UHGV virus genome: UHGV-0299584
Source of the DNA: a virus
Length of the DNA: 29,351 bases
Direction: 5' to 3' (one strand)
Positions 1,414 to 29,351 of the stretch are shown here, piece after piece (position 1 is the stretch's first letter; each line of letters starts with the position of its first letter). The translations under genes and the position numbers were made by a program. A model generated the notes under the pieces. It made no database searches. It saw only the letters and a program-made list of their open reading frames with translations, and was not told where the DNA came from.

Positions 1414-1632
1414 CGGCAGTACAGCGAAACAACCCAAGCCAGAAAGTGGGGAAATAACACTGGCAGCCACTGAAAGATGAACCTCCTGCCTTATGGCAAA
1501 AAAGATTCTTTGTGGTGGCGGACTGATGGAAAGACATCGGATAGAATAAAACAGTGGCTAGGGTAGCTCCCGAAAAGCGGAATCGTCACCGCCAGCCACT
1601 GAATCTATGACGAACAACTAGACGAGGTTGTG

Positions 1633-13653: not shown

Positions 13654-13665
13654 TGGAGGTGTCTC

Positions 13666-14967: not shown

Positions 14968-16964
14968 TGGCTAAAGCATGGAAAGATGTTATCGCCTCTC
15001 CACAGTATCAGGCGTTAGCACCAGAACAAAAAGCGCAGGCTCAGGAGCAATACTTCAATGAAGTCGTGGCCCCGCAAGCCGGAGAAAATGCAGAGCAGGC
15101 TAAGCAAGCTTTCTATGCTGCCTATCCATTGCCATCTGTGCAGCAAGTGGAGACACAGCAACCAGTAGCACAGCAACAACCACAGCAAAGTGGATTTATG
15201 TCTGATCTTGGCGAAGCAGTAAAAGAGACTGGTCGCGGACTGGTGCAGGCTGGCGTGAACGTGGCAAACATACCTGCATCAGTTGCCGATGCTGTAACAA
15301 GTGCGGCTGCATGGGCTGGCGGTAAACTCGGCATTGGCGATGGTACATATCAACCAGCGCCACGAGTAACAACGCAGGGATTAGAGCAGGACTTTGGCCT
15401 TCAGCAAGGCGCGCTGACTCCACAAACGACAGAGGGCAGGGTGTTTGCTGAAGCATTGCCTTACCTCACTCCTGCTGGCGTTGAGAGAGCGGCAACACTG
15501 GCACCAACACTTGCTGGTCGAATTGCTCAGGGGGCAACTCGCCTTCTCGCAGAAAACGCAGTTGGATCACTTGCTGCAAACAGTGCGAAAGATGATGCGG
15601 AAGCACTCGCCACCGATTTAGGCGTTGGTGTGCTGGCTGGCGGTGCTATTAACGCTGCCGGACGTGGATTAGGTGCTGCTTATCGTGGTGTTCGTGGTTC
15701 GATAGCACCAGAAGCGCAACAGGCTATCAGATTTGCAGAGCGTGAAGGAGTTCCTCTGCACACCACAGACCTGTTACAACCAACTTCCCGCGTCGGAAAA
15801 ATGGCGCAGACTACAGCAGAAAATATCCCTCTGGCTGGCACAAGCGGAATGAGAGCAACGCAACAGGAAGCGAGAAGCCAGTTGGTGCAGAGATTTGCTG
15901 ATAAATTCGGCGAGTACGATCCGGCAGTTGTTATTGACAGCCTTAAAGCGAAAACATCAGGAATTCGTCGTGCTGCTGGGAACCGTCTTGAGCAGGTACA
16001 GAATGCAATGGCAGGAATCAACATTCAACCTGCCAGAGCAATTCAGCAGATAGATACTGAGATATCTAACCTGCAGAAGCTTGGTAAGGTCGCTGATAAC
16101 GAGACGATTTCAAAACTTCAATCCTATCGTGATGAGCTTGTTCGCAATGCTGGCCCTGATGGTCCGGTAAATCTGGATTTGAAGCAATTAAGCGACCTGC
16201 GCAGTCAGTTCAGAATGGACGTGAAGGGTGAGCGACCAGTGTTACCAAACCGTTCCGATGCCGCCATTCAGCGCGTTTACAAGGCGATGACCGACGATAT
16301 CAATGGTGCCATTGGTCAGAATCTTGGCAACGATACTCTCCGTAAATATCAGCAGGCCAATGCCGTCTACGCTGACGAAGCGGCGAAACTCAAGAATACC
16401 AGGCTGAAGAATGTTCTCATGAAAGGCGATCTGACGCCGGAAGTTGTCAACAACATGCTATTCAGCAAGAACAAATCGGAAATTAAGACGCTGTATAACT
16501 CAGTTGGTCGTGTTGGCAGGACGCAAATGCGCAATGGCATCATTGGAAAGGCGATGGAGAAATCTGGCGGATCCCCTGACCAGTTCCTTCGGCAGCTTAA
16601 CATCCTGCAAAACCAGACTGGCATCACATTTAAGGGGCAGGACGCTGCTTATCTGAAGGGATTAAAAAACTACCTGCAATCCACGCAGCAGGCTGCAAAA
16701 GCGGCAGTAACAACCCCCACAGGGCAGCAAACCATCCCGTTCATTATCGGGTATGGGACGGCAATGAACCCGGCGACAACTGGCGCAGCAGTAAGCTACG
16801 GACTTCTTACTCGCGCCTATGAGAGCGAGCCATTCAGAAATGCAATGCTCCGAATGGCAAACACCCCACGCGGATCAACAGCGTTTGAGAAAGCCATGCA
16901 GCAGGTACAAAAGGCAATTAACGCCCTGACTCAGGGAGCTAAGTCTGATGCGTTGTCAGAATAG
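14967..16964 (+). CDS. Ejection protein (P22 gp16-like)
   Basis: 665 aa, last of the four-gene ejection block before the tailspike; Ala/Gly/Gln-rich. Confidence 0.8.
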   Translation: MAKAWKDVIASPQYQALAPEQKAQAQEQYFNEVVAPQAGENAEQAKQAFYAAYPLPSVQQVETQQPVAQQQPQQSGFMSDLGEAVKETGRGLVQAGVNVANIPASVADAVTSAAAWAGGKLGIGDGTYQPAPRVTTQGLEQDFGLQQGALTPQTTEGRVFAEALPYLTPAGVERAATLAPTLAGRIAQGATRLLAENAVGSLAANSAKDDAEALATDLGVGVLAGGAINAAGRGLGAAYRGVRGSIAPEAQQAIRFAEREGVPLHTTDLLQPTSRVGKMAQTTAENIPLAGTSGMRATQQEARSQLVQRFADKFGEYDPAVVIDSLKAKTSGIRRAAGNRLEQVQNAMAGINIQPARAIQQIDTEISNLQKLGKVADNETISKLQSYRDELVRNAGPDGPVNLDLKQLSDLRSQFRMDVKGERPVLPNRSDAAIQRVYKAMTDDINGAIGQNLGNDTLRKYQQANAVYADEAAKLKNTRLKNVLMKGDLTPEVVNNMLFSKNKSEIKTLYNSVGRVGRTQMRNGIIGKAMEKSGGSPDQFLRQLNILQNQTGITFKGQDAAYLKGLKNYLQSTQQAAKAAVTTPTGQQTIPFIIGYGTAMNPATTGAAVSYGLLTRAYESEPFRNAMLRMANTPRGSTAFEKAMQQVQKAINALTQGAKSDALSE

Positions 16965-17128
16965 CGTTGCAAACACCAGGAACGTGCAAAAACCAAATAT
17001 GTAGAACGCAATATTCAACAGATCTTTTTGCATAGACTCATCTCATAGTTAACAAATCATAACTTACATTAAGGCAATGCCGGGCAAGTTGCATCTTGTT
17101 CCGCATTGCTACGTCTGGAGAAAATTAA

Positions 17129-18790
17129 ATGACAGACATTACAGCCAATGTTGTAGTGAGTATGCCTTCGCAACTCTTCACTATGGCGCGTTCTTTTAAA
17201 GCGGTTGCCAATGGCAAAATTTATATCGGTAAAATTGACGCTGACCCGGTAAATCCTGAAAACCAGATTCAGGTTTATTTAGAGAACGAAGACGGCTCTC
17301 ACGTTCCTGTATCGCAACCAATCATCATTAACGCTGCTGGTTACCCGGTATATAACGGACAGATCGCCAAATTCGTTACTGTACATGGCCATTCTATGGC
17401 TGTTTATGATGCGTACGGTGCTCAGCAGTTCTATTTTCCTAATGTGCTGAAGTACGATCCCGATCAGCTTAGATCACAGATAGAATACGGGCAGTATATT
17501 CACATTCCTGATGGTTATTCACATTATGATGAGTTTGATAATATTCCTCTGAATATATTGGGTGTGGATTATAGTCCTGTTAATGTATATGATGTTTCTT
17601 ATGATGTGTTGACTGGTATATTTAAAGTTTCTGTTCAGAATGCAGATAATTTTCATGTTGGTAAATATTGTATACTTTCTGGCAGGAGAGACATTTCATG
17701 TGGAGCGATGATAATTTCCAAGGATGGAAATGTTTTAACATTGGATATGAGTCACAATGGTATAATTTCAGGCCCGGTTAACGGGGTTGTGGCAAAACCA
17801 ATAAATTCCATAATAAAAACAACAAAAGGAATACAATTTAGATCAAATATATACAGCATAAAAAATGTTGCTATTGAAACAGATGGTGATTACGGACTCA
17901 TTATCGGAGGTGGATACTACCCTGATTCACAATGTGGTAGTTGCGTAGTTTGGGATGCAAACAATTTAATTGTAAATGGAGGCTCTGTTTGTGGAGTTCT
18001 TGTTTCTGGCTCTGGATCTCAGTTTTGTATCAATGAAGTTCATATTACTAACGCAAATATTTCGCTGGAATGTATTTACGCAGCTAGCGTGAAAGGTTTT
18101 TCATTTTCATCATACAATTCAAATGAAGACTCAATTAAGGTTGAGCATGCTTCATCTTGCTATATAAAAGAATTGTCAATTATAAAACCGAAAACTCAGT
18201 CTTGCGTAGCGGCTCGTTATTCATCATCTGTAGAGATATCTGATTGTTATATGGTTGGAAGTGAAGGTTCAGCATTTGCTACCAGCCAATTTTCCTCATA
18301 TTTATCATTAAGAAATATTGTTATGCTAGGGAGCGCAAAATATGCGATAAACTGCGTCGATGGTGCTGTTGTCGCAATAAATAATATCGACGCCTCTTTA
18401 GCTAAAGTGGATTATGGGGTAAGGGTTGAAAAACACTCAGTTTTAAGACAGGTAGGTATAAATAGCAATTTTTCAGGTTCTATTGCCGATTCGCTAATAA
18501 ATAACTCTCATGTTGATTTCAATGATATCGTGTTTTCTGGGAAAAAAATTAAATCAACAATTAATGTTGGTTCAATTAATCCAAACTCTAGATTTTCAAT
18601 TCAGAGGGTAGCTACTGGATATAAAATAGAAAATGAACTTCCAATCAATATGACGGTGTTAGGAGATCTGCCAATAGGGGTTATAACTGATGTATTGGCA
18701 ATATCAGACGACATGATTCGTGTTACATTCCAAAACACTAGCTCATCACCTGTTGATGTTGGCAGTGTTGATGTCATTATAGGATGGTAA
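17129..18790 (+). CDS. Tailspike: conserved head-binding domain fused to a divergent beta-helix receptor-binding domain
   Basis: First ~115 aa ([34 protein letters not shown]...VLKYDPDQ) match the P22/Sf6/HK620 head-binding domain as recalled. The remainder is AT-rich, Ser/Asn/Ile/Gly-rich and shows no recognisable similarity to P22 gp9. GGAG RBS. Confidence 0.85.
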
Positions 18791-18840
18791 TAATACTAAA
18801 AAGTAGATTTATTTTGTAAGTTTTTTATTATTGTTTATAA

Positions 18841-18859
18841 GGCCAAAAAACTTTTGGCC
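18841..18859. terminator. Palindromic hairpin between convergent tailspike and acetyltransferase genes (putative bidirectional terminator)
   Basis: GGCCAAAA-aac-TTTTGGCC, an 8-bp perfect stem in an AT-rich context between two convergent stop codons. Confidence 0.45.
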
Positions 18860-18875
18860 TTATGCTAAATGAGAT

Positions 18876-19469
18876 TTATAGTAATCGCCTATCCCATTTC
18901 ACACCTGTTTTGATTATTTTTGCTGGAGTACCAGCAATAATAATATTGCTTTCAGAAAATTTACCAGTTACAGTTGCCCTTGCGCCAACAATAGTTTCAT
19001 CTGGAATAAAGGCACCTTTCATGATGAGCGCATCAAGACCAATCCAGCACTTATCTCCTATTGATATGTTTTTTGCTGGATTTATCCTGTTTCCATCCAT
19101 ATCTGTTATTGAATGTGAGTCTGTTGTTCTTATTTGAACGCCTGACGCAAACATGCAATTAACACCAATTGAAACACTAGTCCCCTCTTGAATGTTTATA
19201 TTGGTGTTCTGAAAGCTTGTAAGGCTTGATATCACGAGACAGTTCCCATCGCCTCTCATATTTACAGAGCCAACTATAGAACACCTCTCACCGATATTAA
19301 TAGTATTATTATCACCATTTATCAAAATGGATAAATTATGTATTTTTGCATGCTTTTCTATATTTATATGATTGTTCTTTCCATTAATGCGAATAGATAT
19401 TTTTTTTATGTCAGCATCAACATGATTTATAGAGTTATTTTCTCCGGAAATCTGTTTTATTATATCCAT
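18876..19469 (-). CDS. Hexapeptide-repeat (left-handed beta-helix) acetyl/acyltransferase, moron
   Basis: Product shows periodic [LIV]-G-x4 hexads (INIGERCSIVGSVNMRGDGNCLVISS..., ISIGDKCWIGLDALIMKGAFIPDETIVGARATVTG) typical of the LacA/WcaF/CysE-type family. AT-rich; sits between tailspike and int. ATG 19469 preferred over TTG 19481. Confidence 0.7.
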   Translation of the reverse strand: MDIIKQISGENNSINHVDADIKKISIRINGKNNHINIEKHAKIHNLSILINGDNNTINIGERCSIVGSVNMRGDGNCLVISSLTSFQNTNINIQEGTSVSIGVNCMFASGVQIRTTDSHSITDMDGNRINPAKNISIGDKCWIGLDALIMKGAFIPDETIVGARATVTGKFSESNIIIAGTPAKIIKTGVKWDRRLL

Positions 19470-19783
19470 CACTATACTCAATTATTTTGATTGATTTATT
19501 TACAACTTATTAATGTATATGTCATAAATTATATCATAATTTTAATAAAAATCAATATACGAGGTTTTGCATGTATATATTGTAATTTATTGCATATGTT
19601 GATAATAAATTTTATTTGATGCTTAACATAATTATCATGAAATTAGTTATTCAATAACTCTTGTTTTTTAATGTGACAATCACGTTGCTTATATTTAATA
19701 ATGAAACTATATGGTTTTATTATTAAATTTGTGTTTACCTAGATGAATTAATTGTTTTATTTATGATTTTTATCATGGAATCA

Positions 19784-20941
19784 TTAATCCACCTTTTCAT
19801 CAACCCAATCCGCCCACCACTGCATCATTTCTCTGCGCTTATCGAGATACTGAGCATGGTTGTAAATCCCGCGCACAGATCCGCCGTTGGCATGTGCCAG
19901 TTGCGCTTCAATAGCATCAGCAGGCCATTCGTGCTCGTTCATAATCGTGCTGAATTCATGCCTGAATCCGTGACCGCTTTCCAGACCCTCATAGCCGATT
20001 TGTTTGATCACAAGTAGCACCGCGTTCTCGCAGATTGGCTTTTTCTTATCGTTGCGCCCGGCAAAAACAAACTCTGATACTGGTTTGGTGATTGAACTTA
20101 GCGTAGTGAGAAGTTCAACTACCTGGTCTGACATAGGAACCACATGAATTTTGCGTCCCTTCATCACACTGGCGTCGATGGTGATAATCCTGTTTTCAAA
20201 ATCGACGTTCTTCCATAGCATGGAACGAAGCTCTTTCGTTCTTAGGGCTGTGTAGCGTAAAACTTTGGTCGCAATGAGCGATACGATACTTCCTGAAAAT
20301 GTTGCCAGTGCTTTGTTGAATGCCGGGATCTGGTCTGCAGGAAGAAACGGGAAGTTCTTCTTGCGGTATCCCTTCATGGCGTCAGCAAGGTCAGGTGCCG
20401 GGTTATATTTAGCCCTACCAGTGACAATAGCGTAACGGAAAACCTCGCCGCATCTTCTGCGGGCTTTGTTGGCTCGCTCCATTGCACCGCGATCTTCAAA
20501 TCTGCGGATTACTTCCAGTAGTTGCATCGGCTCAATATCCTGAATTTCAAGACCGCCGATGATGGGTAAAATGTCGTCATCAAACATTTTTGCAAGTTCA
20601 TTTGCATAGCCTACTGACCAGACTTGCTTCTTGTGCTCGTACCATTCCTTGTAAATGGCGCTAAAGGAATTGTTGTTAGACGAAGCCTTTTTCGCCTTTA
20701 CCGGATCGATGCCAACCGAGATGTCTTTCCTCGCAGTCCATGCTTTATCCCTTGCCTCTTGCAAAGTCATAAGCGGATATTTTCCGACGGTCAGTATTTT
20801 CTCCTTACCGTCAATCTTGTAGCGAAGCTGCCATACCTTTTTCCCTGACACAGGGACATAAAGGTACAGGCCATTACCATCGAGTAGGCGGTATGGTTTT
20901 TCTTTCGGTTTTGCTGCTTCAATCTGCTTAACGGTGAGCAT
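19784..20941 (-). CDS. int: Tyrosine integrase (P4-like family)
   Basis: Product has the typical N-terminal arm (LTVKQIEAAKPKEKPYRLLDGNGLYLYV) and C-terminal catalytic region (...HGFRHEFSTIM..., ...RGIYNHAQYLDKRREMMQWWADW). Start ATG 20941, or GTG 20977 as in the ORF track. Confidence 0.9.
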   Translation of the reverse strand: MLTVKQIEAAKPKEKPYRLLDGNGLYLYVPVSGKKVWQLRYKIDGKEKILTVGKYPLMTLQEARDKAWTARKDISVGIDPVKAKKASSNNNSFSAIYKEWYEHKKQVWSVGYANELAKMFDDDILPIIGGLEIQDIEPMQLLEVIRRFEDRGAMERANKARRRCGEVFRYAIVTGRAKYNPAPDLADAMKGYRKKNFPFLPADQIPAFNKALATFSGSIVSLIATKVLRYTALRTKELRSMLWKNVDFENRIITIDASVMKGRKIHVVPMSDQVVELLTTLSSITKPVSEFVFAGRNDKKKPICENAVLLVIKQIGYEGLESGHGFRHEFSTIMNEHEWPADAIEAQLAHANGGSVRGIYNHAQYLDKRREMMQWWADWVDEKVD

Positions 20942-20986
20942 GGGTAAAAATCCGGTGGGTAAAATTATTTTATCCACTTTTTACCC
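20942..20986. repeat. Cluster of TTTTACCC / GGGTAAAA octamers (putative arm-type Int-binding sites)
   Basis: GGGTAAAA at 20942-20949 and 20957-20964; TTTTACCC at 20979-20986, read directly. Confidence 0.4.
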
Positions 20987-21102
20987 GTCATGTAGTGCGG
21001 CTGTCAACGATCTGACGCGAACCATGACGAACTGTAAATCTACGGAAGGCTTGATATTCAGGGGATTTTGCGGACTGGTACGGATGGGAGCGAACTGATA
21101 AA

Positions 21103-21117
21103 TGGTGTCCCCTGCAG
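21103..21117 (-). other. attP core: 15-nt identity to the 3' end of tRNA-Arg (argW), flanked by an 8-bp inverted repeat
   Basis: The - strand reads CTGCAGGGGACACCA, matching the acceptor-stem/CCA end of E. coli argW from memory. TCCCCTGC (21108-21115) and GCAGGGGA (21134-21141) form a perfect inverted repeat; phage genes lie on both sides. Confidence 0.6.
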
Positions 21118-21176
21118 ACATCTACTTGAGGCGGCAGGGGATTGATTGGAATGGTGTTTTTTAGATGTGAAAAATA

Positions 21177-21196
21177 TTTTACCCGCTATTTTACCC
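21177..21196. repeat. Two further TTTTACCC octamers on the other side of the attP core
   Basis: TTTTACCCG at 21177-21185 and TTTTACCCA at 21189-21197, same motif as flanks the int start. Confidence 0.4.
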
Positions 21197-21391
21197 ATTG
21201 GCGCGGCTTAAGAGCTTATTTTTGAATTCACAATGGTCACGATATAACCATCTTGCTCGCCCGTGGATAACTTTGGCTTTAGGTAGGTCTCCGGACTTAA
21301 TCCGGTCATAGATGAAGGTCTTACCGAAGCCAGTATCGGCCATGATGAATTTCAAATCAACCAGGGAATCAGGCTGTAGTTCGTGTTGCAT
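21191..21391 (-). CDS. AlpA-family DNA-binding protein / putative excisionase
   Basis: 66-aa product with a helix-turn-helix (FIMADTGFGKTFIYDRIKSGDLPKAKVIHGRARWLYRD) resembling AlpA/Xis proteins that partner P4-like integrases; adjacent to attP. Confidence 0.65.
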   Translation of the reverse strand: MQHELQPDSLVDLKFIMADTGFGKTFIYDRIKSGDLPKAKVIHGRARWLYRDHCEFKNKLLSRANG

Positions 21392-21436
21392 GAGTGCTAT
21401 CTCCGAATAGGGAATCGAATCTGCAAATCAGGTAAT

Positions 21437-21457
21437 AAAAAACCGCCATCAGGCGGC
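21437..21457 (-). terminator. Intrinsic terminator on the - strand between the early-left operon and xis
   Basis: - strand reads CCGCC-tgat-GGCGG followed by TTTTTT. Confidence 0.5.
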
Positions 21458-21616
21458 TTGGTGTTCTTTCAGTTCTTCAATTCGAATATTGGTTACGTCT
21501 GCATGCGCTATCTGCGCCCATATCATCCAGTGGTTATGGCAGTCGTTGATGTCCTCTGCTTCGATAACCCTGTCGAATGGCTCTCCATTCCATTCACCTG
21601 TGACTCGGAAGTGCAT
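21449..21616 (-). CDS. Small ORF (55 aa) missing from the ORF track
   Basis: ATG at 21616 preceded by GGAGA. Product MHFRVTGEWNGEPFDRVIEAEDINDCHNHWMIWAQIAHADVTNIRIEELKEHQAA; its stop lies in the terminator hairpin. Confidence 0.45.
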   Translation of the reverse strand: MHFRVTGEWNGEPFDRVIEAEDINDCHNHWMIWAQIAHADVTNIRIEELKEHQAA

Positions 21617-21723
21617 TTATCATCTCCATAAAACAAAACCCGCCGTAGCGAGTTCAGATAAAATAAATCCCCGCGAGTGCGAGGATTGTTATTCACATTT
21701 GACGGCAAGTTGCAGGTTAGCCA

Positions 21724-21981
21724 TTACCGCACCTCCAGTCTCCATACCGCCTGACCAATCCGGCTGGCATATGTATCTTTGGATACTGCTCCGTCTTTAG
21801 CCAGCTCCATAAGAATTTTGCGCAAATCTGCCGAACGCCATTCTTCATCAGGAAATTCCTTCTCCATTGCCAACCGCAAATTCCAGGTTGCCATCCTGAA
21901 TGGATATTCCCCGCCGAGAGCTTTATCTTGCAGGGCAGCCCGGGAACGCATCACCTGCAAAACCTTCTCTTTTACATCCAT
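21724..21981 (-). CDS. Hypothetical early-left protein (85 aa)
   Basis: ATG overlaps the upstream stop (TGATG); last gene of the coupled chain. Confidence 0.6.
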   Translation of the reverse strand: MDVKEKVLQVMRSRAALQDKALGGEYPFRMATWNLRLAMEKEFPDEEWRSADLRKILMELAKDGAVSKDTYASRIGQAVWRLEVR

Positions 21982-22991
21982 CACTTCACCTCCTGCTGTG
22001 GTGCTGCTGGCATTTCACGCCAGTGCGTAACTGAGTGCGGATCCGGATATTCGGTGCCATCATCCCAGCGATTGCCATTCCACATTGCAGACCACATCTC
22101 ACCGTCTTCATACATGACCATTACCGGAATTAACTTATCCGGCATTCGCTCACTACAGCTTATCCAACCATCCGGAGTCACCGGAAGCGAGAACGGCAGC
22201 ACATCTCTGTGAACAAGTTTTTGCTGTGACAGGTTATCCAGAACTTTCTGTACTGCTGCATCACCGAATACACCAAGCGCATCTGCCATAACTCCTACAA
22301 CCTGATAAGCCTCAGCGCATACCGTGGATAAACCATCCGGAATTACCGGAGAGTTGCCGGGTTCTTTAATGTGCAAGCGAGGCTCACCATCTTTTGGTTC
22401 AGGCCACTGGCGCTCCATGTTGATCTTCAATTTATCTTCCATAGCAGCGGTAATTTCAGCATCGCTGATGCCAGCACGGCGCTGTGCATCCCACAACAGG
22501 AAATGCATATCAGCCCACTCGCTGAGATCGTCTGGTTCGGCTGCGGCTTCCAGAGCCTCTTTTGAGAGGTGTTTCAGTGGACCAATGGGGCCAACGCAGC
22601 CAAATGTGGAGTCAGACCATTTGGCATGCTCGTGGCGAATCAGTTCGCGTTCCAGTGATGCCAGTGCAATTCGTGCCAGTTCTTCCGCTTCTTCTGCTGG
22701 CAGTACAACGTTGCTACCAGGTCCGTATGTTTCGCGCCACCGCTTGATTGTCAGCAGTCGCTCTTTGGTAATAGTGCTCATGGGTTTTCCCTCCGCCATC
22801 TCTTCATCGGTTTCCCATAAAACTCGCGCCTGCCCCTCACAGACTTGAATGACTCCGCCACGACCGCAGGAGTTGCACTTAACGGCATCGTCATCCCACA
22901 AGGCGGTTTCATTTCCGCGAGCTGTTTTGACCGTGTGTGATTTATTCCCGCAGCGGCATTTGTTGAGCCAGTCAATAGTGAAAGTTTTCAT
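21981..22991 (-). CDS. EaA-like multidomain early protein (Cys cluster, DUF550-like, DUF551-like)
   Basis: N-terminal CxC...CxxC cluster (CRCGNKSH...CNSCGRGG); a central region resembling the dATP/dGTP pyrophosphohydrolase-like DUF550; a C-terminal domain sharing motifs with the 71-aa protein at 1633-1848. ATGA overlap with the upstream gene. Confidence 0.7.
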   Translation of the reverse strand: MKTFTIDWLNKCRCGNKSHTVKTARGNETALWDDDAVKCNSCGRGGVIQVCEGQARVLWETDEEMAEGKPMSTITKERLLTIKRWRETYGPGSNVVLPAEEAEELARIALASLERELIRHEHAKWSDSTFGCVGPIGPLKHLSKEALEAAAEPDDLSEWADMHFLLWDAQRRAGISDAEITAAMEDKLKINMERQWPEPKDGEPRLHIKEPGNSPVIPDGLSTVCAEAYQVVGVMADALGVFGDAAVQKVLDNLSQQKLVHRDVLPFSLPVTPDGWISCSERMPDKLIPVMVMYEDGEMWSAMWNGNRWDDGTEYPDPHSVTHWREMPAAPQQEVK

Positions 22992-23215
22992 GATGCCTCT
23001 CCTTTACTCGCTGCTTTCGCCTGCTCTTTAGCAAGTCGCTCCGCTTCTCTGAAATCCCAGTCAACTCGACGTGCTATATCAATTGCAGAACGCACGGTCC
23101 GTTCAATTAGCGCATCCAGATTATCGATTGTCATTGCCATATCTGGATTGCGAGATAAAATCTCCGCCCTCTGAATCTGCCAGTTGTTGCAGGTTTCAAG
23201 TAATGAGTTAGCCAT
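22988..23215 (-). CDS. Hypothetical small protein (75 aa)
   Basis: ATG 23215 with strong AGGAGAG RBS, 1 nt after the upstream stop; the longer ORF-track version lacks an RBS. Confidence 0.5.
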   Translation of the reverse strand: MANSLLETCNNWQIQRAEILSRNPDMAMTIDNLDALIERTVRSAIDIARRVDWDFREAERLAKEQAKAASKGEAS

Positions 23216-23216
23216 A

Positions 23217-23705
23217 TCACTCTCCTTTGATGCGAATGCCAGCGGCGCGCGGCACATTAACTTCCACAATGCGCACAGTTGGTTTGTACATCTCAATTGC
23301 TGTCAGCCAGTCAGCGCCAGTCATGCGCTTTTCTGCATCGCCAGTAGTCCACTTAACCGGTACACCAATAGCCTTCATCGCGATTTCTATTTCCCCGGCA
23401 ATGGCGCTTTTCCCGCAACCAGTAAAACCAGATACAACGACAAGAACTTCGCCTTTGGCTGGTTTTATTTCCCGCGCTTCCAGTTCTGCTATGCGCTTCT
23501 CTGCGGCTTCCAGCTCAACACGCAGCTTCCCTACCGTTAGCGCAATATCCTCGTTCTCCTGGTCGCGGCGTTTTATGTATTGCTGGTTTCTTTCCAGTTC
23601 ATCCAGTAGTGCGTTAGCTTCATCCTCTCTCAACACCACTGTGTCGAAGCTTTCGGCCTGCTTTTTGATTTTTGCAATCAGCGCCTGTTTGTTGATGTTG
23701 CTCAT
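23217..23705 (-). CDS. Hypothetical protein with coiled coil (Ea22-like?)
   Basis: ATG 23705 overlaps the upstream stop (ATGA). Coiled-coil segment (LRVELEAAEKRIAELEAREIKPAKGE); family assignment tentative. Confidence 0.55.
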   Translation of the reverse strand: MSNINKQALIAKIKKQAESFDTVVLREDEANALLDELERNQQYIKRRDQENEDIALTVGKLRVELEAAEKRIAELEAREIKPAKGEVLVVVSGFTGCGKSAIAGEIEIAMKAIGVPVKWTTGDAEKRMTGADWLTAIEMYKPTVRIVEVNVPRAAGIRIKGE

Positions 23706-24019
23706 TGGGCGGACTCCTGTGCTCCAAGTTTTGCCCATACTTCAAGGCTGTTATGCGAAATCAGCGCTTCGCGAACGCATGGCCTGTAGTAGTGATGGAA
23801 AGCGAAGGTCAGGCCGAGTTTTGTCGGGCGATCGTGTTTGCCAAGCAATCCCAGGCGAATACAGATAGTCGTTGCCGTGTAGCCAGAGTGATAGCCAGCA
23901 GCACGCTTCATGACTGTTTCTGCCAGAATGGTGCGGAAATCAGTTCGCCCGAAATTGGTACCTTCGAAAGCGGCGTTAACCACTTCGTCTGTAAGATGTG
24001 AATCATCAACTATGCTCAT
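23702..24019 (-). CDS. Hypothetical protein (105 aa)
   Basis: ATGA overlap with the upstream gene; no recognisable motif. Confidence 0.55.
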   Translation of the reverse strand: MSIVDDSHLTDEVVNAAFEGTNFGRTDFRTILAETVMKRAAGYHSGYTATTICIRLGLLGKHDRPTKLGLTFAFHHYYRPCVREALISHNSLEVWAKLGAQESAQ

Positions 24020-24561
24020 ACCGCTTCCCCCTTACGAAGCTGGGCAGCGAACTCGTCGCATACGTGCGTTAAAGAGCAAATCTGGATAGCAGGATGCTCG
24101 CGCAACAATTCCACCCCCTGCGCCAGCACTTCATCCAGGAAGGCGTCCGTAGCTGGGGTTTTGATGTCGTTGAGAGCATCGGTAAACCCGCCTCGATCCA
24201 TACCAAGCTCAGCCTCGTAATCAGCATCGAATGCTGCGTCTTTGCAGAACTTCTTCAGCCCCGCATTCTCCGCTGCCAGCGCTGAAAACTTCTCGTGTGC
24301 CAACTTAACGGCTGCATCTGCCTGCCTCATTGCCTCCATTGCTTTCTTGTTATCAGCAGCCAGCGCCGCGCACTTGGCCTCAAGGTTATCAATCGTGATT
24401 CCAGCAGAACGACACTCCCGCAACGCCGTTTCCAGTTTTGATTCAAGTTCACCGAACTTACGGACAAGATATTCAGCGTTTGTTTCGTTAACCTTTAAAT
24501 CTCGTGGGATGCATTTACCTTTCAGAAAACCATCCATCTCAATTAGTGACATTTGTTTCAT
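24016..24561 (-). CDS. Ead/Ea22-like protein
   Basis: Coiled-coil-rich product ([45 protein letters not shown]) resembling Ead/Ea22-family early proteins. ATG 24561 chosen for its ATGA overlap with the upstream stop; GTG 24579 is an alternative. Confidence 0.6.
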
Positions 24562-24722
24562 TTCTTCCCACTCCGCCACATCGCATTCAGATATTTGTTT
24601 TGATTTACTGACGGAAAAGAATTTCTCTTAAGCAATTCCTCTCTCGATGGCATTGGCTTTACGCGTTGGCGAATAATCATTTCTGCCGGAAGAATGCCGG
24701 GATTGTATGCAAGTCCTCTCAT
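24558..24722 (-). CDS. Hypothetical small protein (54 aa)
   Basis: ATG 24722 preceded by GAGGAA; the longer ORF-track version would overlap the upstream gene. Confidence 0.4.
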
Positions 24723-24732
24723 GGTAAATTCC

Positions 24733-25026
24733 TCAGTCATTACTGATAGCGCCGTAACGTGAGCGGTAATTACGCAGGCGCGGGTCAATTTCAGGGAAGT
24801 GGGTATATGTGGCTTTGCGGAATGGTCGGATTGATGTCTGGTAAATTCGCTCGCGTTCTTCTTTCTCTGCAAGCCATATACAATGGCGAAATTCCTTTTC
24901 CTCTTTCGTTTCCTGCGGTAGCGACATTATCCGGTCGTAGTTTTTTCTGAATTTATCCAGCACCTCCGATACGGAATTGCCGGAACAGCGGCGCGGGTCA
25001 TCCGCACCATACAGAGGCGCTGGCAT
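24733..25026 (-). CDS. Hypothetical protein (97 aa); possibly an Abc-type anti-RecBCD protein by position
   Basis: Sits just distal to ssb-erf, where P22 carries abc1/abc2; size is compatible but sequence identity is not verified. Confidence 0.5.
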
Positions 25027-25049
25027 AATGGAATCCTTATTTTTCTAAA

Positions 25050-25433
25050 TCAGAATGGGATGGAATCGTCGTATACAGGAGTGTTCTGCTGGTTACTACT
25101 TTGCTGCTGCGGGCTGTTTCCTGAAGTTGCAAATCCAATCTTTGCATTCAGTAATTCAAGAGTGATTGATTGACCATTTTGCCCCTGATAAACATCAACC
25201 CTGATGTTTTCTCCGGTAATTTCCACAATTCCACCTTCAACAAGAACACTACGGTAGTAATCCGCTTGCGCTCCCGGCTTGGCAAATACAACGGCGCTGT
25301 AGTTTGCCCATTCTTTCTTTTTTGTCTGGCGATCGTAATACTGAACGCCAGCACGGATGTTGAATCCGATATTTTCCCCGGCCTGAAACTCTCTTGCGGG
25401 CTTGTTTAGTCTTACAGTAATCGAATGTGCCAT
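25050..25433 (-). CDS. ssb: Single-stranded DNA-binding protein (phage SSB)
   Basis: 127-aa product from ATG 25433 (MAHSITVRLNKPAREFQ...) with a Gln-rich linker and the acidic SSB tail ...YDDSIPF (compare E. coli SSB DDDIPF). Start overlaps the erf stop (TAATG). Confidence 0.7.
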   Translation of the reverse strand: MAHSITVRLNKPAREFQAGENIGFNIRAGVQYYDRQTKKKEWANYSAVVFAKPGAQADYYRSVLVEGGIVEITGENIRVDVYQGQNGQSITLELLNAKIGFATSGNSPQQQSSNQQNTPVYDDSIPF

Positions 25434-26038
25434 TAAGCAGCCGCTCCTTCTAATTCGTCTCGTCTGATGTTGTAAACGTCCTGCGCTTTGTGCTGCTCCG
25501 GTGTGCCTTCGAGCATCTTCCACGCTTTGGCGAACGCCTGTTTAAGCTCTTCCACGGTGTTTTTCTGCATTGCTGCGTCAGTGAATGCTTTTAGAACCTG
25601 TTCAGGTGTAGGTGATGGGTTTGATTGCTTTGCTGCTGCGTTCTGCTGATGTTTATGCTCGTCTGTATCTGCATCTTTCGCATCATCAATGCCGAATAAA
25701 CCATTGAGGCAATACTTGCGTGCATAAGAGCTTGTAGCTCCCGTAACTTGTGCAGAATCCATTCCTTTCTTGCTTTCTTCCTCTCGTGCAAGAGCGGTTG
25801 CCGTATGACTGTTTTCGCCATCGGTAATAGTTGCCGTGGCTTTCACGTAATACCGATCACCAATCAACACAACTTCATCGCTGATTGATAAAAACAGGCC
25901 ATTCAGTAACGGCTTAACACCCTCAAGAATGTCTTCGCAGCTTCTGTATTTATATTTGCCGAATGAGTTGTATTGATTCTTTGGCGCGTTCAGATTCTCC
26001 TGAATAGCTGCCAGTCTTGCGTAAAATTCTTTGCTCAT
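25433..26038 (-). CDS. erf: Erf-family single-strand annealing recombinase
   Basis: Product from ATG 26038 (MSKEFYARLAAIQENLNAPKNQYNSFGKYKYRSCEDILEGVKPLLNGLFLSISDEVVLIGDRYYVKATATITDGENSH...) matches P22 Erf as recalled. Confidence 0.85.
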   Translation of the reverse strand: MSKEFYARLAAIQENLNAPKNQYNSFGKYKYRSCEDILEGVKPLLNGLFLSISDEVVLIGDRYYVKATATITDGENSHTATALAREEESKKGMDSAQVTGATSSYARKYCLNGLFGIDDAKDADTDEHKHQQNAAAKQSNPSPTPEQVLKAFTDAAMQKNTVEELKQAFAKAWKMLEGTPEQHKAQDVYNIRRDELEGAAA

Positions 26039-26139
26039 ATGATTGTTCTCAGAATGGACATGGACCAAGGAAATAACGCTGATTTAATACTTCTACTCGG
26101 GACAAATTAAGGCATACCCGCATTCCTTCGCGGTCGCCA

Positions 26140-26298
26140 TTATGGCGATACCAGAGAGCTTTCTGCGTGTACATGCGTCTCTGTAACTTGCTCTCCTTCA
26201 CTGTGGTTGCAAGTGACATGAATATCTCCTTCGTTACCGATTAATTCTTTCATCTGACGAATGAATTCTTCGTCTGACCAGTTATCCGTAAAACTCAT
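26140..26298 (-). CDS. Hypothetical small acidic protein (52 aa) in the kil-equivalent position
   Basis: ATG 26298 overlaps the cIII-like stop (ATGA); product MSFTDNWSDEEFIRQMKELIGNEGDIHVTCNHSEGEQ... Confidence 0.45.
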   Translation of the reverse strand: MSFTDNWSDEEFIRQMKELIGNEGDIHVTCNHSEGEQVTETHVHAESSLVSP

Positions 26299-26465
26299 GG
26301 ACGGCCTTGTTGTTTCAAAATATCCCAAAGCTTTTCGAGCAAACTTTTCATTCTTGGTTGTTTAAAGTCTGCTCCGGTTAAAATATTTTTTCGTGAATGC
26401 TGTACCGATAAAATCGGGTTGAAAGGGCGAACCGATGCCGCCCCTGCAATAGCGAACTGTTGCAT
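26295..26465 (-). CDS. cIII: cIII-like small regulator (putative FtsH inhibitor)
   Basis: 56-aa product from ATG 26465 (AGGAG RBS) begins MQQFAIAG, like lambda CIII MQYAIAG, and lies between N and the recombination genes. Confidence 0.6.
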   Translation of the reverse strand: MQQFAIAGAASVRPFNPILSVQHSRKNILTGADFKQPRMKSLLEKLWDILKQQGRP

Positions 26466-26617
26466 AGGATGCTCCTTCTGTTTGATTGCATAACGAAAAC
26501 GCCTCGAGTGAAGCGTTATTGGTATGCATATAAAAAAGCCCCCACACTGGAGGGCAAAGAAGATTTCCAATAATCAGAACAAGTCGGCTCCTGTTTAGTT
26601 ACGAGCGACATTGCTCC

Positions 26618-26645
26618 GTGTATTCACTCGTTGGAATGAATACAC
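26618..26645. repeat. Perfect 9-bp inverted repeat GTGTATTCA / TGAATACAC with 10-nt spacer
   Basis: Read directly; intergenic, between the 207-aa gene and cIII. Confidence 0.8.
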
Positions 26646-26673
26646 AGTGCTATGTTTATTCTGTTGTTTATGC

Positions 26674-26699
26674 CAAAAATAAAGGCCGACTATGCGGCC
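26674..26699 (-). terminator. Putative intrinsic terminator after the 207-aa gene
   Basis: - strand reads GGCCG-catagt-CGGCC followed by TTTATTTTTGG; the gene's stop codon lies in the loop. Confidence 0.45.
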
Positions 26700-27313
26700 T
26701 CGGAAGGAAGTCCAATCATCTTATTCAAATCTTCTACCCGTAAAGCAGGAAGTGCTGTACTTGCTTTATCTGCTTCTTTTGGTAGCAACTCTTTGCTTTC
26801 AGGCCAAACTTCAATAAGTCGCTTAACTGTTGTGACTGAGTTCAAAGCAGCCCATACATTTGATTCGATATCCTTTTTCTTGGCTTCAAGTTTTTGTTGC
26901 AATGCGCAGATTTCATCAAACCTTTTTGTTATTTCGTGTTCTGCGTCAAACATGCATTTATCTTTTTCTGGGGTGGGGAGCAATATATCTTCACCGTTGC
27001 CGTCTTTTCCGTATGAATGCCAGCCAACTCTTCTGCCAGATACAGTCAGATAAATTGAAGCAAAACGAACATCGCATGAGTAAAATGAACATCCCAGTTT
27101 TTCAAGTTCTTCACTTATAGCTACTAACTTGGATGATAACTGATCCACTTCCTCAGTTTTCTTTTTACCGCCAAACGCAATAACTCTGGCGTCAAGTGCA
27201 AGCTGGTTCTTTAACTTTATTACTTCTTCAAGTTCAGTGAAAACCCCAGACTTAATTAAAGCGTTACGAGCGATTTCCTCTTTCATTCTCGTAGTTAAGC
27301 GGATTGATGACAT
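26690..27313 (-). CDS. Unrecognised 207-aa protein, AT-rich, between N and cIII
   Basis: ATG 27313 with GAGAGGAA RBS, 11 nt after the N stop. No transmembrane segment or motif I recognise. Visibly lower GC than flanking genes (not computed). Confidence 0.6.
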   Translation of the reverse strand: MSSIRLTTRMKEEIARNALIKSGVFTELEEVIKLKNQLALDARVIAFGGKKKTEEVDQLSSKLVAISEELEKLGCSFYSCDVRFASIYLTVSGRRVGWHSYGKDGNGEDILLPTPEKDKCMFDAEHEITKRFDEICALQQKLEAKKKDIESNVWAALNSVTTVKRLIEVWPESKELLPKEADKASTALPALRVEDLNKMIGLPSEAA

Positions 27314-27324
27314 ATTAATTCCTC

Positions 27325-27624
27325 TCAAATAAGTGGTTTGCTGCCTAATTTCATTTTCTGGCGACCAACACAAGTCACACCTATTTCACTGCGTGGCTTG
27401 CTGTAGTAAATACGGTTCTGTTTACGCTCGACTTCTTCTGCCTTCTTGCAGCGAAGGCTTCCGAGTGATGCTGCTTTATCTGCTCTGACGCAACCAGAGA
27501 GCTTTAGCGAAATTTTTCGCGCCAGTCGCTGCTCTTGCATTGCCTGTTCACGTTGAGCCTGTCTGCGTGCTCTGCGGCGATTTCTGGCGTTATCGTCAGC
27601 CAGATATGTAATGACTACTGTCAT
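27325..27624 (-). CDS. N: N-family transcription antiterminator
   Basis: 99-aa product with an N-terminal arginine-rich motif (NARNRRRARRQAQREQ). C-terminus NRIYYSKPRSEIGVTCVGRQKMKLGSKPLI matches lambda N (RTWYSKPGERGITCSGRQKIKGKSIPLI) as recalled. GGAGG RBS. Confidence 0.8.
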   Translation of the reverse strand: MTVVITYLADDNARNRRRARRQAQREQAMQEQRLARKISLKLSGCVRADKAASLGSLRCKKAEEVERKQNRIYYSKPRSEIGVTCVGRQKMKLGSKPLI

Positions 27625-27937
27625 GTTGACCTCCGATGAAACAACTTTGGAATTTTTTTATTACAAAGTGGTTTCCTTCCCCGCCAATTAGACGGGGATG
27701 GAAGAGCATTTATGAGCCTTCATGGACTCTGCTCGATCAGTTCTATTTAATTAATCTCTCAATTGAATGTAAGTATTCACATAAATCCTCCTACCTCTTG
27801 TGCAGCTTTCTTGAATATGGTGGCGGCTGCATAACGCCTATGGAATTGACTTTGGCGGTGACGCGCCGGGTGCTTATCTTCCGGTTGCCGTCGTGCAGCT
27901 GCACTTCACGTCACCCCAAAGCCAACTACTCTTTGGT

Positions 27938-27978
27938 TCCCGCATTTCGGCGGGACAATCCCATCAATGTTAAAGAGC
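27938..27978 (-). promoter_or_regulatory. nutL: boxA (GCTCTTTAACA) plus boxB hairpin (TCCCGCCGAAATGCGGGA) on the pL transcript
   Basis: - strand reads GGCTCTTTAACA, 12-nt spacer, TCCCGCCGAAATGCGGGA; the same 18-nt boxB recurs in nutR at 29094-29111. Confidence 0.65.
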
Positions 27979-28025
27979 CTGCCAATCTGTTCCGTTTGGC
28001 TACCAGCGTCCTGCTGATGGCTTAA

Positions 28026-28110
28026 ATTTAAGATCTCTTTAATTAATGGTCAAGGGGATTTTTGAAGAAAACTTAAATTTTCTTTCGTAACTTAAGTTTA
28101 GCTTTGATTT
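28026..28110 (-). promoter_or_regulatory. OL / pL operator-promoter region
   Basis: ATTTAAGATCTCTTTAAT at 28026-28043 has the same ATTTAAG-N4-CTTTAAT architecture as OR1; further ACTTAA-containing repeats follow. Confidence 0.5.
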
Positions 28111-28121
28111 TTAAAGGAAAT

Positions 28122-28142
28122 AAAAAAAGGGGCGAATGCCCC
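28122..28142 (-). terminator. Intrinsic terminator immediately downstream of cI
   Basis: - strand reads GGGGC-attc-GCCCC followed by TTTTTTT, 2 nt past the cI stop. Confidence 0.6.
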
Positions 28143-28144
28143 CC

Positions 28145-28795
28145 TTATGGAAGGTTTGCTAGTTTTGCATCGACAACTACGCCGATGATTTTGCAGTTTC
28201 CGTTGATCTCGATCATCGGATATTGTGGGTTAAGTGGTTTTAGAAACTTCCTGCCTGCATCAATAACTAACTTCTTGAAAGTTGCCTCGTTTTCTCCTTC
28301 GAGCTTTGCAACTACAAGTTTCCCGTTACGCGGCTCTACTTCAGGATCGACGAGTATTATCATTCCTTCAGGGATACTGAGACCGGCCGGAGCCGTCATT
28401 GAGTCTCCCTTCACGTCCAACCAAAACGAATCTTCTGAACAGTCTACGGTTGTATCGTACCAGTTATCTATTGCACGCTTATGATATGGTTCTACAGCTT
28501 CCATCCAGCATCCTGCGCTCACCCAGCTAATCAGAGGGTATGACCCTCTTGGATCATGCCTACTGTGATAGGCAATGTTTGAAAGACTTTCCTCTCCTTT
28601 CATCAGATAGTCAGGGGAACACTTCAACGCATTAGCCAGGGCGAGAAGATTCTCTCCATTTGGCTCTGTCTCAGAGCGTTCCCACTGAGATATGGCAACA
28701 TTAGACACGCCGACCATCTTTCCAAGTGCGGCCTGCCTGATCTTGAGTTCTTTTCTCCGAGCGCGAATGCGCTCTCCCATCAATTGAGTTTTCAT
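28145..28795 (-). CDS. cI: CI-type repressor (P22 c2-like), LexA-like S24 autocleavage domain
   Basis: 216-aa product MKTQLMGERIRARRKELKIRQAALGKMVGVSNVAISQWERSE... matches the P22 c2 repressor as recalled; has the helix-turn-helix, the Ser (GDSM) and the Lys (NGKLVVAKL) of the S24 dyad. Confidence 0.93.
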   Translation of the reverse strand: MKTQLMGERIRARRKELKIRQAALGKMVGVSNVAISQWERSETEPNGENLLALANALKCSPDYLMKGEESLSNIAYHSRHDPRGSYPLISWVSAGCWMEAVEPYHKRAIDNWYDTTVDCSEDSFWLDVKGDSMTAPAGLSIPEGMIILVDPEVEPRNGKLVVAKLEGENEATFKKLVIDAGRKFLKPLNPQYPMIEINGNCKIIGVVVDAKLANLP

Positions 28796-28797
28796 AG

Positions 28798-28861
28798 TTA
28801 AGACATCTTAAATAAACTTGACTTAAGATTCCTTTAGTGGATAATTTAAGTGTTCTTTAAT
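28798..28861. promoter_or_regulatory. OR operator region (three P22-type operators) with divergent pRM/pR
   Basis: TTAAGACATCTTAA at 28798-28811; ACTTAAGATTCCTTTAGT around 28821-28838; ATTTAAGTGTTCTTTAAT at 28844-28861. Lies between the divergent cI and cro starts. Confidence 0.7.
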
Positions 28862-28875
28862 TTCGGAGCGAGTCT

Positions 28876-29061
28876 ATGTACAAGAAAGATGTTATCGACC
28901 ACTTCGGAACCCAGCGTGCTGTAGCTAAAGCGTTAGGCATTAGCGACGCAGCAGTCTCTCAGTGGAAGGAAGTCATCCCAGAGAAAGACGCCTATCGACT
29001 GGAAGTCGTTACAGCTGGCGCCCTGAAGTATCAAGAAAGCGCTTACCGCAAAGCGGCATAA
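28876..29061 (+). CDS. cro: Cro repressor (P22 Cro-like)
   Basis: 61-aa product MYKKDVIDHFGTQRAVAKALGISDAAVSQWKEVIPEKDAYRLEVVTAGALKYQESAYRKAA matches P22 Cro as recalled; GGAG RBS. Confidence 0.9.
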   Translation: MYKKDVIDHFGTQRAVAKALGISDAAVSQWKEVIPEKDAYRLEVVTAGALKYQESAYRKAA

Positions 29062-29067
29062 GCAAAT

Positions 29068-29111
29068 TGCTCTTTAACAGTCATGGTCCTCATTCCCGCC
29101 GAAATGCGGGA
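29068..29111 (+). promoter_or_regulatory. nutR: boxA (TGCTCTTTAACA) plus boxB hairpin
   Basis: boxA at 29068-29079 and boxB TCCCGCCGAAATGCGGGA at 29094-29111, identical to the nutL boxB. Confidence 0.65.
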
Positions 29112-29169
29112 ATACAACGCGCATAAGTTGATGCGCATAACTTCTTATTTGTTAAGGAAATACTTACAT

Positions 29170-29351
29170 ATGGTTCGTGCAAACAAACGCAACGAGGCTC
29201 TACGAATCGAGAGTGCGTTGCTTAACAAAATCGCAATGCTTGGAACTGAGAAGACAGCGGAAGCTGTGGGCGTTGATAAGTCGCAGATCAGCAGGTGGAA
29301 GAGGGACTGGATTCCAAAGTTCTCAATGCTGCTTGCTGTTCTTGAATGGGG
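29170..29351 (+). CDS. cII: CII-type transcriptional activator, 5' part (runs off the window end)
   Basis: ATG 29170 with AAGGA RBS; translation MVRANKRNEALRIESALLNKIAMLGTEKTAEAVGVDKSQISRWKRDWIPKFSMLLAVLEW matches lambda CII as recalled. Absent from the ORF track because no stop falls within the window. Confidence 0.8.
   Translation, partial: MVRANKRNEALRIESALLNKIAMLGTEKTAEAVGVDKSQISRWKRDWIPKFSMLLAVLEW

Follow-up and report, generated by a model that had tools for sequence, protein, structure and literature searches.

The P22 protein Abc2 binds RecC and modifies the activity of RecBCD (PMC9836394), and a structure of the RecBCD-bound protein has been solved (PDB 8B1T). HK446 gp27 (Oad2), a relative of P22 EaE, was shown in experiments to bind the P2 OLD abortive-infection nuclease and to inhibit it; the same work names Gp33 of HK75 and HK446 as a trigger of OLD and describes the recombination-linked locus as an anti-defence hotspot (bioRxiv 10.64898/2026.07.10.737580, July 2026). 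Hypervariable regions adjoining abc2 have already been treated in published work as pools of counter-defence candidates (bioRxiv 10.1101/2023.04.06.535777), and comparable Salmonella and E. coli prophage regions, with Abc2-DUF2737 and Ead_Ea22/DUF551 genes, are listed by Silas et al. 2025 in their table of accessory regions. Here, we investigated a block of eight genes (g1 to g8) at positions 21,724 to 25,026 on the minus strand of the UHGV virus genome UHGV-0299584, the whole stretch of 29,351 nucleotides (nt) being referred to as the window. The window is that of a P22-like temperate phage: besides a leftward early operon, it has int and xis, a repressor of the cI type, and injection and tailspike genes of the P22 type. 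We conclude that the block is probably the "ea" segment of the phage's leftward early (pL) operon, a run of non-essential accessory genes, and that its shuffled cargo plausibly serves host takeover and counter-defence. A first, sequence-only reading had presented the block as eight small unknown genes forming a pool of anti-defence candidates. The first half of that description was too strong, since five of the eight products belong to named families (Abc2, DUF2737/P22 orf56, EaE, EaD/Ea22 and EaA, the last being DUF550 plus DUF551); the second half is reasonable, and family membership speaks for it in two genes, abc2 and the Oad2 homologue g3. In transcriptional order, the genes and the hairpins that follow them are these.

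24733-25026, minus strand: g1, abc2, 97 amino acids (aa), assigned by Pfam PF11043 and identity to P22 Abc2
24558-24722, minus strand: g2, homologue of DUF2737/P22 orf56, 54 aa, Pfam PF10930 at E 3e-31
24016-24561, minus strand: g3, EaE/Oad2-family protein, 181 aa, assigned by identity to HK446 gp27
23702-24019, minus strand: g4, 105 aa, with an unnamed domain of ~75 aa (motif F.GTNFG...GYH.G.T), phrog_18088 at E 9e-58
23217-23705, minus strand: g5, EaD/Ea22-like protein, 162 aa, Pfam PF13935
22988-23215, minus strand: g6, rare protein of 75 aa, phrog_10585 at E 1e-41
21981-22991, minus strand: g7, EaA homologue, 336 aa, Pfam PF04447 and PF04448
21724-21981 (ATG start) or 21724-21984 (GTG start), minus strand: g8, predicted winged-helix protein, 85 or 86 aa, phrog_2814 at E 2e-51
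21687-21666 (9 bp, 5 GC, T-run) and 21655-21636, minus strand: two terminator-like hairpins from a consensus scan, 37 nt past the g8 stop codon

The coordinates and strand of all eight open reading frames (ORFs) were confirmed, and each product matched a PHROG family over its full length at E <= 1e-38; they are therefore real genes. The spacings between them are +10 nt from g1 to g2, -4 (ATGA) from g2 to g3, -4 from g3 to g4, -4 from g4 to g5, +1 from g5 to g6, -4 from g6 to g7 and -1 from g7 to g8, the last junction reading TGATG, or GTGA (-4) if GTG 21984 is the start of g8. Six of the seven junctions thus lie between -4 and +1 nt, with four ATGA overlaps. The ATGA and TGATG overlaps of the earlier description were recovered; its limit of at most 4 nt between consecutive ORFs held for these six junctions and failed for abc2 to g2, where a 10-nt spacer is found, as between P22 abc2 and orf56. 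All eight chosen starts are preceded, 5-10 nt upstream, by a Shine-Dalgarno match of 4-8 nt, compared to 28% of all 104 ATGs on the same strand of the region, and where the raw ORF track places a longer in-frame start (g2, g3, g5 and g6), that start has no such motif. Moreover, an independent gene caller gave the same lengths for g3-g8 (181/105/162/75/336/85 aa) on the metagenome contig k141_27851 (ENA ERZ27308837), which is 100% identical to window positions 13217-29293, and for g3-g6 on the related NCBI assembly L004, which is 99.95% identical to the window over 22331-26200. The trimmed starts proposed earlier agree with these independent calls. The combination of a stop/start overlap or abutment at six of the seven junctions with a Shine-Dalgarno motif at every start has the geometry of translational coupling, and ribosomes may pass from gene to gene at the ATGA and TGATG overlaps, each start having its own Shine-Dalgarno sequence. 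This packing is far from random, yet it is not special to the block: the P22 ea genes follow each other at -4, -4, -4, -13, -26 and -1 nt, and tight packing is the norm for such operons. Rfam and tRNA scans gave no match inside the eight-gene block.

The product of g1 matched Pfam PF11043 at 212.7 bits (cut-off 25) over residues 1-97 of 97 (E 6e-64), phrog_656 ("abc2 anti-RecBCD") and chain A of 8B1T (E 2e-58), and it is 94% identical to P22 Abc2 and 98% identical to HK446 Abc2. A 97-aa protein had been noted where P22 encodes its Abc proteins; the product is Abc2 itself. By its 94% identity to the P22 protein, g1 would be expected to bind RecC and to modify RecBCD. The next product, g2, is 75% identical to P22 orf56 and 96% identical to HK446 gp28. 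Its start has GAGGA 8 nt upstream, longer TTG or ATG starts being without a Shine-Dalgarno motif, and PGAP called a 54-aa DUF2737 protein at the same position in a related prophage.

The g3 protein consists of a conserved N-terminus, a coiled coil and a divergent C-terminal half. It is 51% identical to HK446 gp27 over residues 1-178 (BLASTP E 2e-53), and it lies directly after the DUF2737 gene, as does Oad2 in HK446. The identity of HK446_027 with Oad2 follows from a comparison of figures: we computed 54% identity between HK446_027 and HK75_28, which is the value published for Oad2 and its HK75 homologue (bioRxiv 10.64898/2026.07.10.737580). Identity between g3 and Oad2 reaches ~97% over the first 65 residues, whereas the C-terminal ~115 residues are of another type; over g3 residues 95-180, the identity to gp73 of Klebsiella phage 6991 is 55%. 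End to end, g3 aligns with P22 EaE, HF4s EaE, HK75 gp28 and HK446 gp27, the motifs TPATDAFL and QLRKG being common to them. The direct match to P22 EaE was weak (E 2e-4), tblastn matches were annotated EaE or Eae, and no Pfam family matched, PF13935 included. Binding and silencing of an OLD-type host or prophage nuclease is the most likely role of g3 by homology. Its target specificity is probably different from that of Oad2, because the C-terminal half differs.

In an exhaustive HMMER search of 1.84 billion proteins, the ~75-aa core of g4 turned up in 311 representative clusters, either by itself or at one or the other end of a longer protein; fusions to DUF551, FtsK_gamma and Lar were rare. 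Pfam, NCBIfam and PDB gave no match for g4. It is 83% identical to gp74 of Klebsiella phage 6991, and in that phage gp73 (g3-like) is followed by gp74 with a 4-nt overlap, as here; thus, the C-terminal half of g3 and g4 move together. PDB sequence and profile searches with g3 and g4 returned no real match, a ZapB match of the EaE profile being an effect of the coiled coil. A more specific proposal is that g3 and g4, a pair that recurs with its 4-nt overlap in distant Klebsiella phages, make up a counter-defence module of two genes, with an Oad2-type N-terminus and another C-terminal "specificity" half. Such a module could neutralize an immune nuclease other than P2 OLD, either of the OLD family or otherwise guarding RecBCD. 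We consider this version tentative and rather unlikely as it stands; if true, the family would be a modular set of inhibitors in which the half that recognizes the target can be exchanged. A parallel and equally tentative possibility is that g7 removes dGTP and dATP or a nucleotide immune signal.

The layout of g5 comprises a variable N-terminus (56% identical to that of P22 EaD), a coiled coil and a near-invariant C-terminal domain of 78 aa. Pfam PF13935 matched at 47.2 bits (cut-off 27) over residues 29-75 only, i.e., the coiled coil. The C-terminal domain is almost invariant in 21 homologues and includes an invariant Walker-A-like stretch, GFTGCGKS, which fits the pattern GxxxxGK[ST]. Its matches to P-loop proteins were below threshold (FtsY and ArsA at E 0.2-0.3; NCBIfam at E 0.002-0.006), the isolated domain had no Pfam match, and neither sequence nor profile searches of PDB connected it with the C-terminal domain of lambda Ea22. 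Among 50,697 phage records, g6 was found only in HK140 and in Erwinia phage vB_EhrS_49; its start has AAGGAG 6 nt upstream.

In g7, a zinc ribbon (residues 1-70; CxCG...CxxCG) precedes a DUF550/MazZ-like domain (118-213) and DUF551 (275-332). PF04447 matched over its full length at 140.8 bits (cut-off 23; E 2e-41) and PF04448 at 65.3 bits (cut-off 22; E 9e-18). P22 EaA is 42% identical over residues 71-331. There are ~8,000 relatives, the usual form of which begins at the equivalent of M71, and the fusion to a zinc ribbon was otherwise present only in two database proteins (P0001 and P0007) and in the NCBI assembly L004. As a stand-alone protein, the ribbon has relatives of 35-44% identity in Acinetobacter, Vibrio, Klebsiella and large E. 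coli phages. The ATG of M71 (22770-22790 region, minus strand) keeps its own GGAGGG motif 7 nt upstream, and g7 could therefore yield, via this internal start, a 266-aa EaA besides the 336-aa fusion. The residues E145, E148, E158 and D161 are invariant in 31 homologues and presumably represent the metal-binding motif (ExxE...ExxD) of MazG-type all-alpha nucleoside triphosphate pyrophosphatases. An AlphaFold2 model built with 31 close homologues reached a mean predicted local distance difference test (pLDDT) of 42, DUF551 alone being moderately confident; Foldseek searches with this low-pLDDT model gave only weak Tudor/Sm-like matches (probability <= 0.3), and PDB sequence and profile searches gave no real match.

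We also considered the g7 ribbon as a restriction alleviation protein of the Lar/Ral type and rejected this, as no PF14354 or NCBIfam Lar match was obtained and BLASTP against a Lar-family protein of E. coli LR-24 gave E 0.57; the sole match of the ribbon was a sub-threshold CSL zinc finger (18.8 bits, cut-off 29.2). Comparison with Abc2, the Ea22/Ead families and anti-restriction proteins, by hidden Markov models and structure, had been suggested as a check on the block: it was positive for Abc2 (g1) and for PF13935 (g5) and negative for Lar. A Lar-family restriction-alleviation gene does stand at the equivalent place of the ea block in the E. coli LR-24 prophage (L002 3822-4055); known anti-restriction genes therefore do cycle through the region.

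For g8, GTG 21984, one codon upstream of ATG 21981, is an equally good start; the resulting 86-aa form is the one named in public records and matches the first residue of Klebsiella homologues. We found 103 clusters, all from Enterobacteriaceae where named, and the sources label them "eaa protein". The AlphaFold2 model (pLDDT 94.4) has an H-b-H-H-b-b topology, and its top PDB matches in Foldseek were nearly all winged-helix proteins: RosR, BlaI/MecI, Fur N-terminal domains, PapI, STIV F93 and ORC winged-helix domains (template-modelling [TM] score 0.5-0.7; best viral match TM 0.84). The DNA binders among them, such as RosR, BlaI/MecI, PapI and STIV F93, had TM 0.6-0.7, probability ~1 and E >= 0.02. 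The model thus predicts that g8 is a small winged-helix fold. A sequence search of PDB gave no real match, a "TPR" match having no stretch that passed.

The block is a mosaic. A 4.2-kb query was covered to >=80% in 0 of 50,697 phage records and 0 of 5,426 complete E. coli genomes, the best cover being 46-52%, and nearly all related phages lack g4 and g6. Peptide strings of g2-g8 had no match in the supplementary text of Silas et al. 2025. Homology to L004 stops at 22331, inside g7 between DUF550 and DUF551, at a repeated PV(I/T)PDG(W/L) linker where relatives switch domains too; a second homology breakpoint lies inside g3. Gene and domain boundaries may thus double as recombination joints, which would make the block a set of interchangeable cassettes.

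From high to low coordinates, the minus-strand early operon runs from an N-like antiterminator over an Nmad5 gene, a cIII-like gene, two small ORFs, erf and an ssb-like gene to g1-g8, and upstream of the block it has the following parts.

27325-27624, minus strand: N-like antiterminator, head of the early operon
26690-27313, minus strand: Nmad5-domain protein, 207 aa, full-length match to Pfam Nmad5 (nucleotide modification associated domain 5) at E 1e-69
26295-26465, minus strand: cIII-like gene, upstream part of the early operon
26140-26298 and 26049-26219, minus strand: two small overlapping ORFs with full-length PHROG matches (phrog_2123 and phrog_1723, both labelled "recombinase")
25433-26038, minus strand: erf, leftward early operon
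25050-25433, minus strand: ssb-like gene, 127 aa, C-terminal end DDSIPF, phrog_44 ("single strand DNA binding protein") at E 3e-27

The Nmad5 gene lies between the N-like antiterminator and the cIII-like gene. The two small ORFs overlap by 80 nt in different frames upstream of erf, and the first of them, 26140-26298, is 88% identical to Gp33 of HK446 and HK75. The ssb-like gene, joined to erf by a 1-nt overlap (TAATG), takes the place of P22 abc1; phrog_44 was the sole family match of its product, Pfam giving none, and it is 97% identical to HK446 gp31. Downstream of the g8 hairpins, a 55-aa gene (21449-21616) is followed by a third terminator, xis and int. This gene (minus strand; phrog_676) is flanked by terminator-like hairpins, one of them at 21440-21459, and adjoins xis in HF4s and in an E. 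coli prophage too; its 3' end and the following hairpin (21434-21496) form 63 nt that are 100% identical to P22 at the annotated aI-RNA terminator. Thus, the block is the distal part of the leftward early operon and g8 is the last gene before a terminator, as had been read from the sequence. Further away, a 197-aa ORF of low GC content (~0.33) lies at 18876-19469 (minus strand), between the tailspike gene (17129-18790, plus strand) and int; it matches phrog_30105 and, weakly, hexapeptide repeats (E 0.001-0.005), and may encode an O-antigen acetyltransferase (seroconversion). The Rfam int-alpA RNA motif was matched at 1551-1613 (plus strand; 42 bits, gathering score 35.8), between ORFs close to the left end of the window and far from the integrase.

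We infer early co-transcription from pL from the position and strand of the block, from a promoter scan that found no promoter-like site on the minus strand inside it, and from the established lambda/P22 model. Transcription from pL would be early, with N-type antitermination, and would include erf and the ssb-like gene. Abc2 would then bind RecC and redirect RecBCD, as established for the P22 protein. In turn, g3 might guard the phage against an OLD-type nuclease that fires when RecBCD is tampered with, that is, against a consequence of the phage's own Abc2 and Gp33-like genes. The 88%-identical homologue of the OLD trigger Gp33, encoded upstream in the same operon, argues for this proposal. 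It is plausible that g2 and g4-g8 are further host-takeover or counter-defence cargo.

Several observations weigh against such a reading. PADLOC and NCBIfam scans of all products gave nothing above noise, and our analysis found no evidence assigning g2, g4, g5, g6, g7 or g8 to counter-defence. The coupling is a prediction from gene geometry. The HK75 homologue of Oad2 fails to inhibit P2 OLD (bioRxiv 10.64898/2026.07.10.737580), and this homologue shows the pattern of g3, with an identical N-terminus and a divergent C-terminal half; family membership therefore does not predict the same target, and g3 may not inhibit P2 OLD. DUF550 proteins hydrolyse dATP and dGTP to deoxynucleoside monophosphates and pyrophosphate, an activity documented for a DUF5664-DUF550 fusion, and this enzymology comes from 2-aminoadenine (Z-genome) phages (PMC12884076), whereas the window shows no sign of a 2-aminoadenine pathway (no PurZ/DatZ context evident). 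Finally, lambda Ea22 is a documented pro-lysogenic factor (PMC10834534), and a part in the choice between lysis and lysogeny may fall to g5 and perhaps to others; on this point the anti-defence label, sound by family for Abc2 and g3, goes too far.

This last point leads to the alternative that survives best, namely, that the block, or most of what follows abc2 in it, adjusts the choice between lysis and lysogeny and the induction of the prophage, like the exo-xis region of lambda and of Shiga toxin (Stx) phages. We regard it as possible, if somewhat unlikely. The g5 protein bears the Ead_Ea22 coiled-coil signature; Ea22 of lambda and of Stx phages promotes lysogeny and has variable C-terminal domains, DUF551 among them, that are swapped as here (PMC10834534). 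The predicted winged helix of g8 is a fold typical of regulators, and the block lies just upstream of xis-int. However, g5 has only the coiled coil in common with lambda Ea22, the C-terminal domains being unrelated, and Abc2 and the Oad2 relative belong to counter-defence or host-takeover families. Control of lysogeny and counter-defence are compatible roles and not mutually exclusive.

An improbable account is that the genes are helpers of phage DNA metabolism, working with Erf, SSB and Abc2 in recombination or in the control of nucleotide pools; for g7 taken singly, a role of this kind is possible. The genes stand in one operon behind erf, ssb and abc2; g7 contains a complete DUF550 domain with invariant acidic residues, DUF550 proteins being dATP/dGTP hydrolases (PMC12884076); and the C-terminal domain of g5 carries a Walker-A-like motif. 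Core metabolic functions would not be expected to be as hypervariable and mosaic as this block, in which g4 and g6 are missing from nearly all related phages, and the P-loop matches of g5 stayed below threshold. Moreover, the P22 ea genes are dispensable, as established by phage genetics, which counts against such a role.

It is very improbable that some of the genes are morons, expressed from the prophage, that protect the lysogen by defence or superinfection exclusion. Prophage accessory regions do often carry defence or exclusion genes, and PADLOC gave faint matches of g5 to Avs2, HEC-07 and JetC (E 0.002-0.008); these matches, however, fall in the coiled-coil or Walker-A stretches, far below significance, and the genes have no minus-strand promoter-like site of their own, their overlaps embedding them in a repressor-controlled early operon. 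That the ORFs, or the starts chosen by trimming, arose by chance or through faulty annotation has next to no probability and is effectively refuted: long antisense ORFs do exist on the plus strand, one of them (23227-23868) with a PHROG match, but the remaining ones have no matches, whereas all eight minus-strand products have their full-length PHROG matches, same-length homologues in many genomes and Shine-Dalgarno motifs, and the g8 model is a confident one (pLDDT 94). The plus-strand ORF at 23227-23868 (213 aa), antisense to g5, matches phrog_13760 at E 6e-17 and lies exactly opposite the conserved Ea22 coiled coil. This family was probably built from mis-called antisense ORFs, and 23227-23868 is rather no real gene.

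An accessory segment of the early operon with shuffled cargo thus remains the reading that we favour. It adds no new principle; the block is a compact example of a recombination-linked accessory hotspot of lambdoid and P22-like phages, in which anti-RecBCD genes and inhibitors of RecBCD-guarding systems are now being found. In practice, it offers a short list of testable candidates: g3 with g4, the zinc-ribbon EaA g7, the Walker-A-type Ea22-like g5, and the rare g6 and g8. Should any of them prove to be an inhibitor, it would help to map which defences sense interference with RecBCD.

Compared to known systems, g7 resembles the MazZ/DUF550 proteins of Z-genome phages in its full-length PF04447 match and its invariant acidic residues, and differs in that its DUF550 domain lies between a zinc ribbon and DUF551; the proteins of the Z-genome phages form their own clade (PMC12884076). 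With Ea22 of the lambda and Stx-phage exo-xis region, g5 shares the Ead_Ea22 coiled-coil signature and a three-part layout with a swappable C-terminal domain, whereas its own C-terminal domain (GFTGCGKS...) is unrelated to the solved one of lambda Ea22. DUF551 is among the swappable C-terminal domains of Ea22 (PMC10834534) and is found here in g7. In the recombination-locus hotspot of HK446 and HK75, the HK446 proteins are 99.5% (Erf), 97% (Gp31), 98% (Abc2), 96% (Gp28) and 88% (Gp33) identical to the products of the window. HK446 gp29 is lacking here, HK446 runs straight to xis whereas g4-g8 intervene in the window, and the C-terminal part of g3, unlike Oad2, is closest to a Klebsiella phage protein. 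Only the combination of genes and their variants is new, i.e., the chimeric g3 with its partner g4, the fusion of a zinc ribbon to EaA and the rare g6. The P22 ea region (abc2, orf56, eaE, orf45, eaF, eaD, eaI, eaA, eaG and eaC, from erf to xis-int) differs in having abc1 where the window has an ssb-like gene; g4, g6 and g8 are without P22 counterpart, eaC, eaF, eaG and eaI are absent here, and EaA here carries an extra N-terminal zinc ribbon. Position, strand, order and overlapping packing are nevertheless the same in both, down to the +10 nt spacer between abc2 and orf56.

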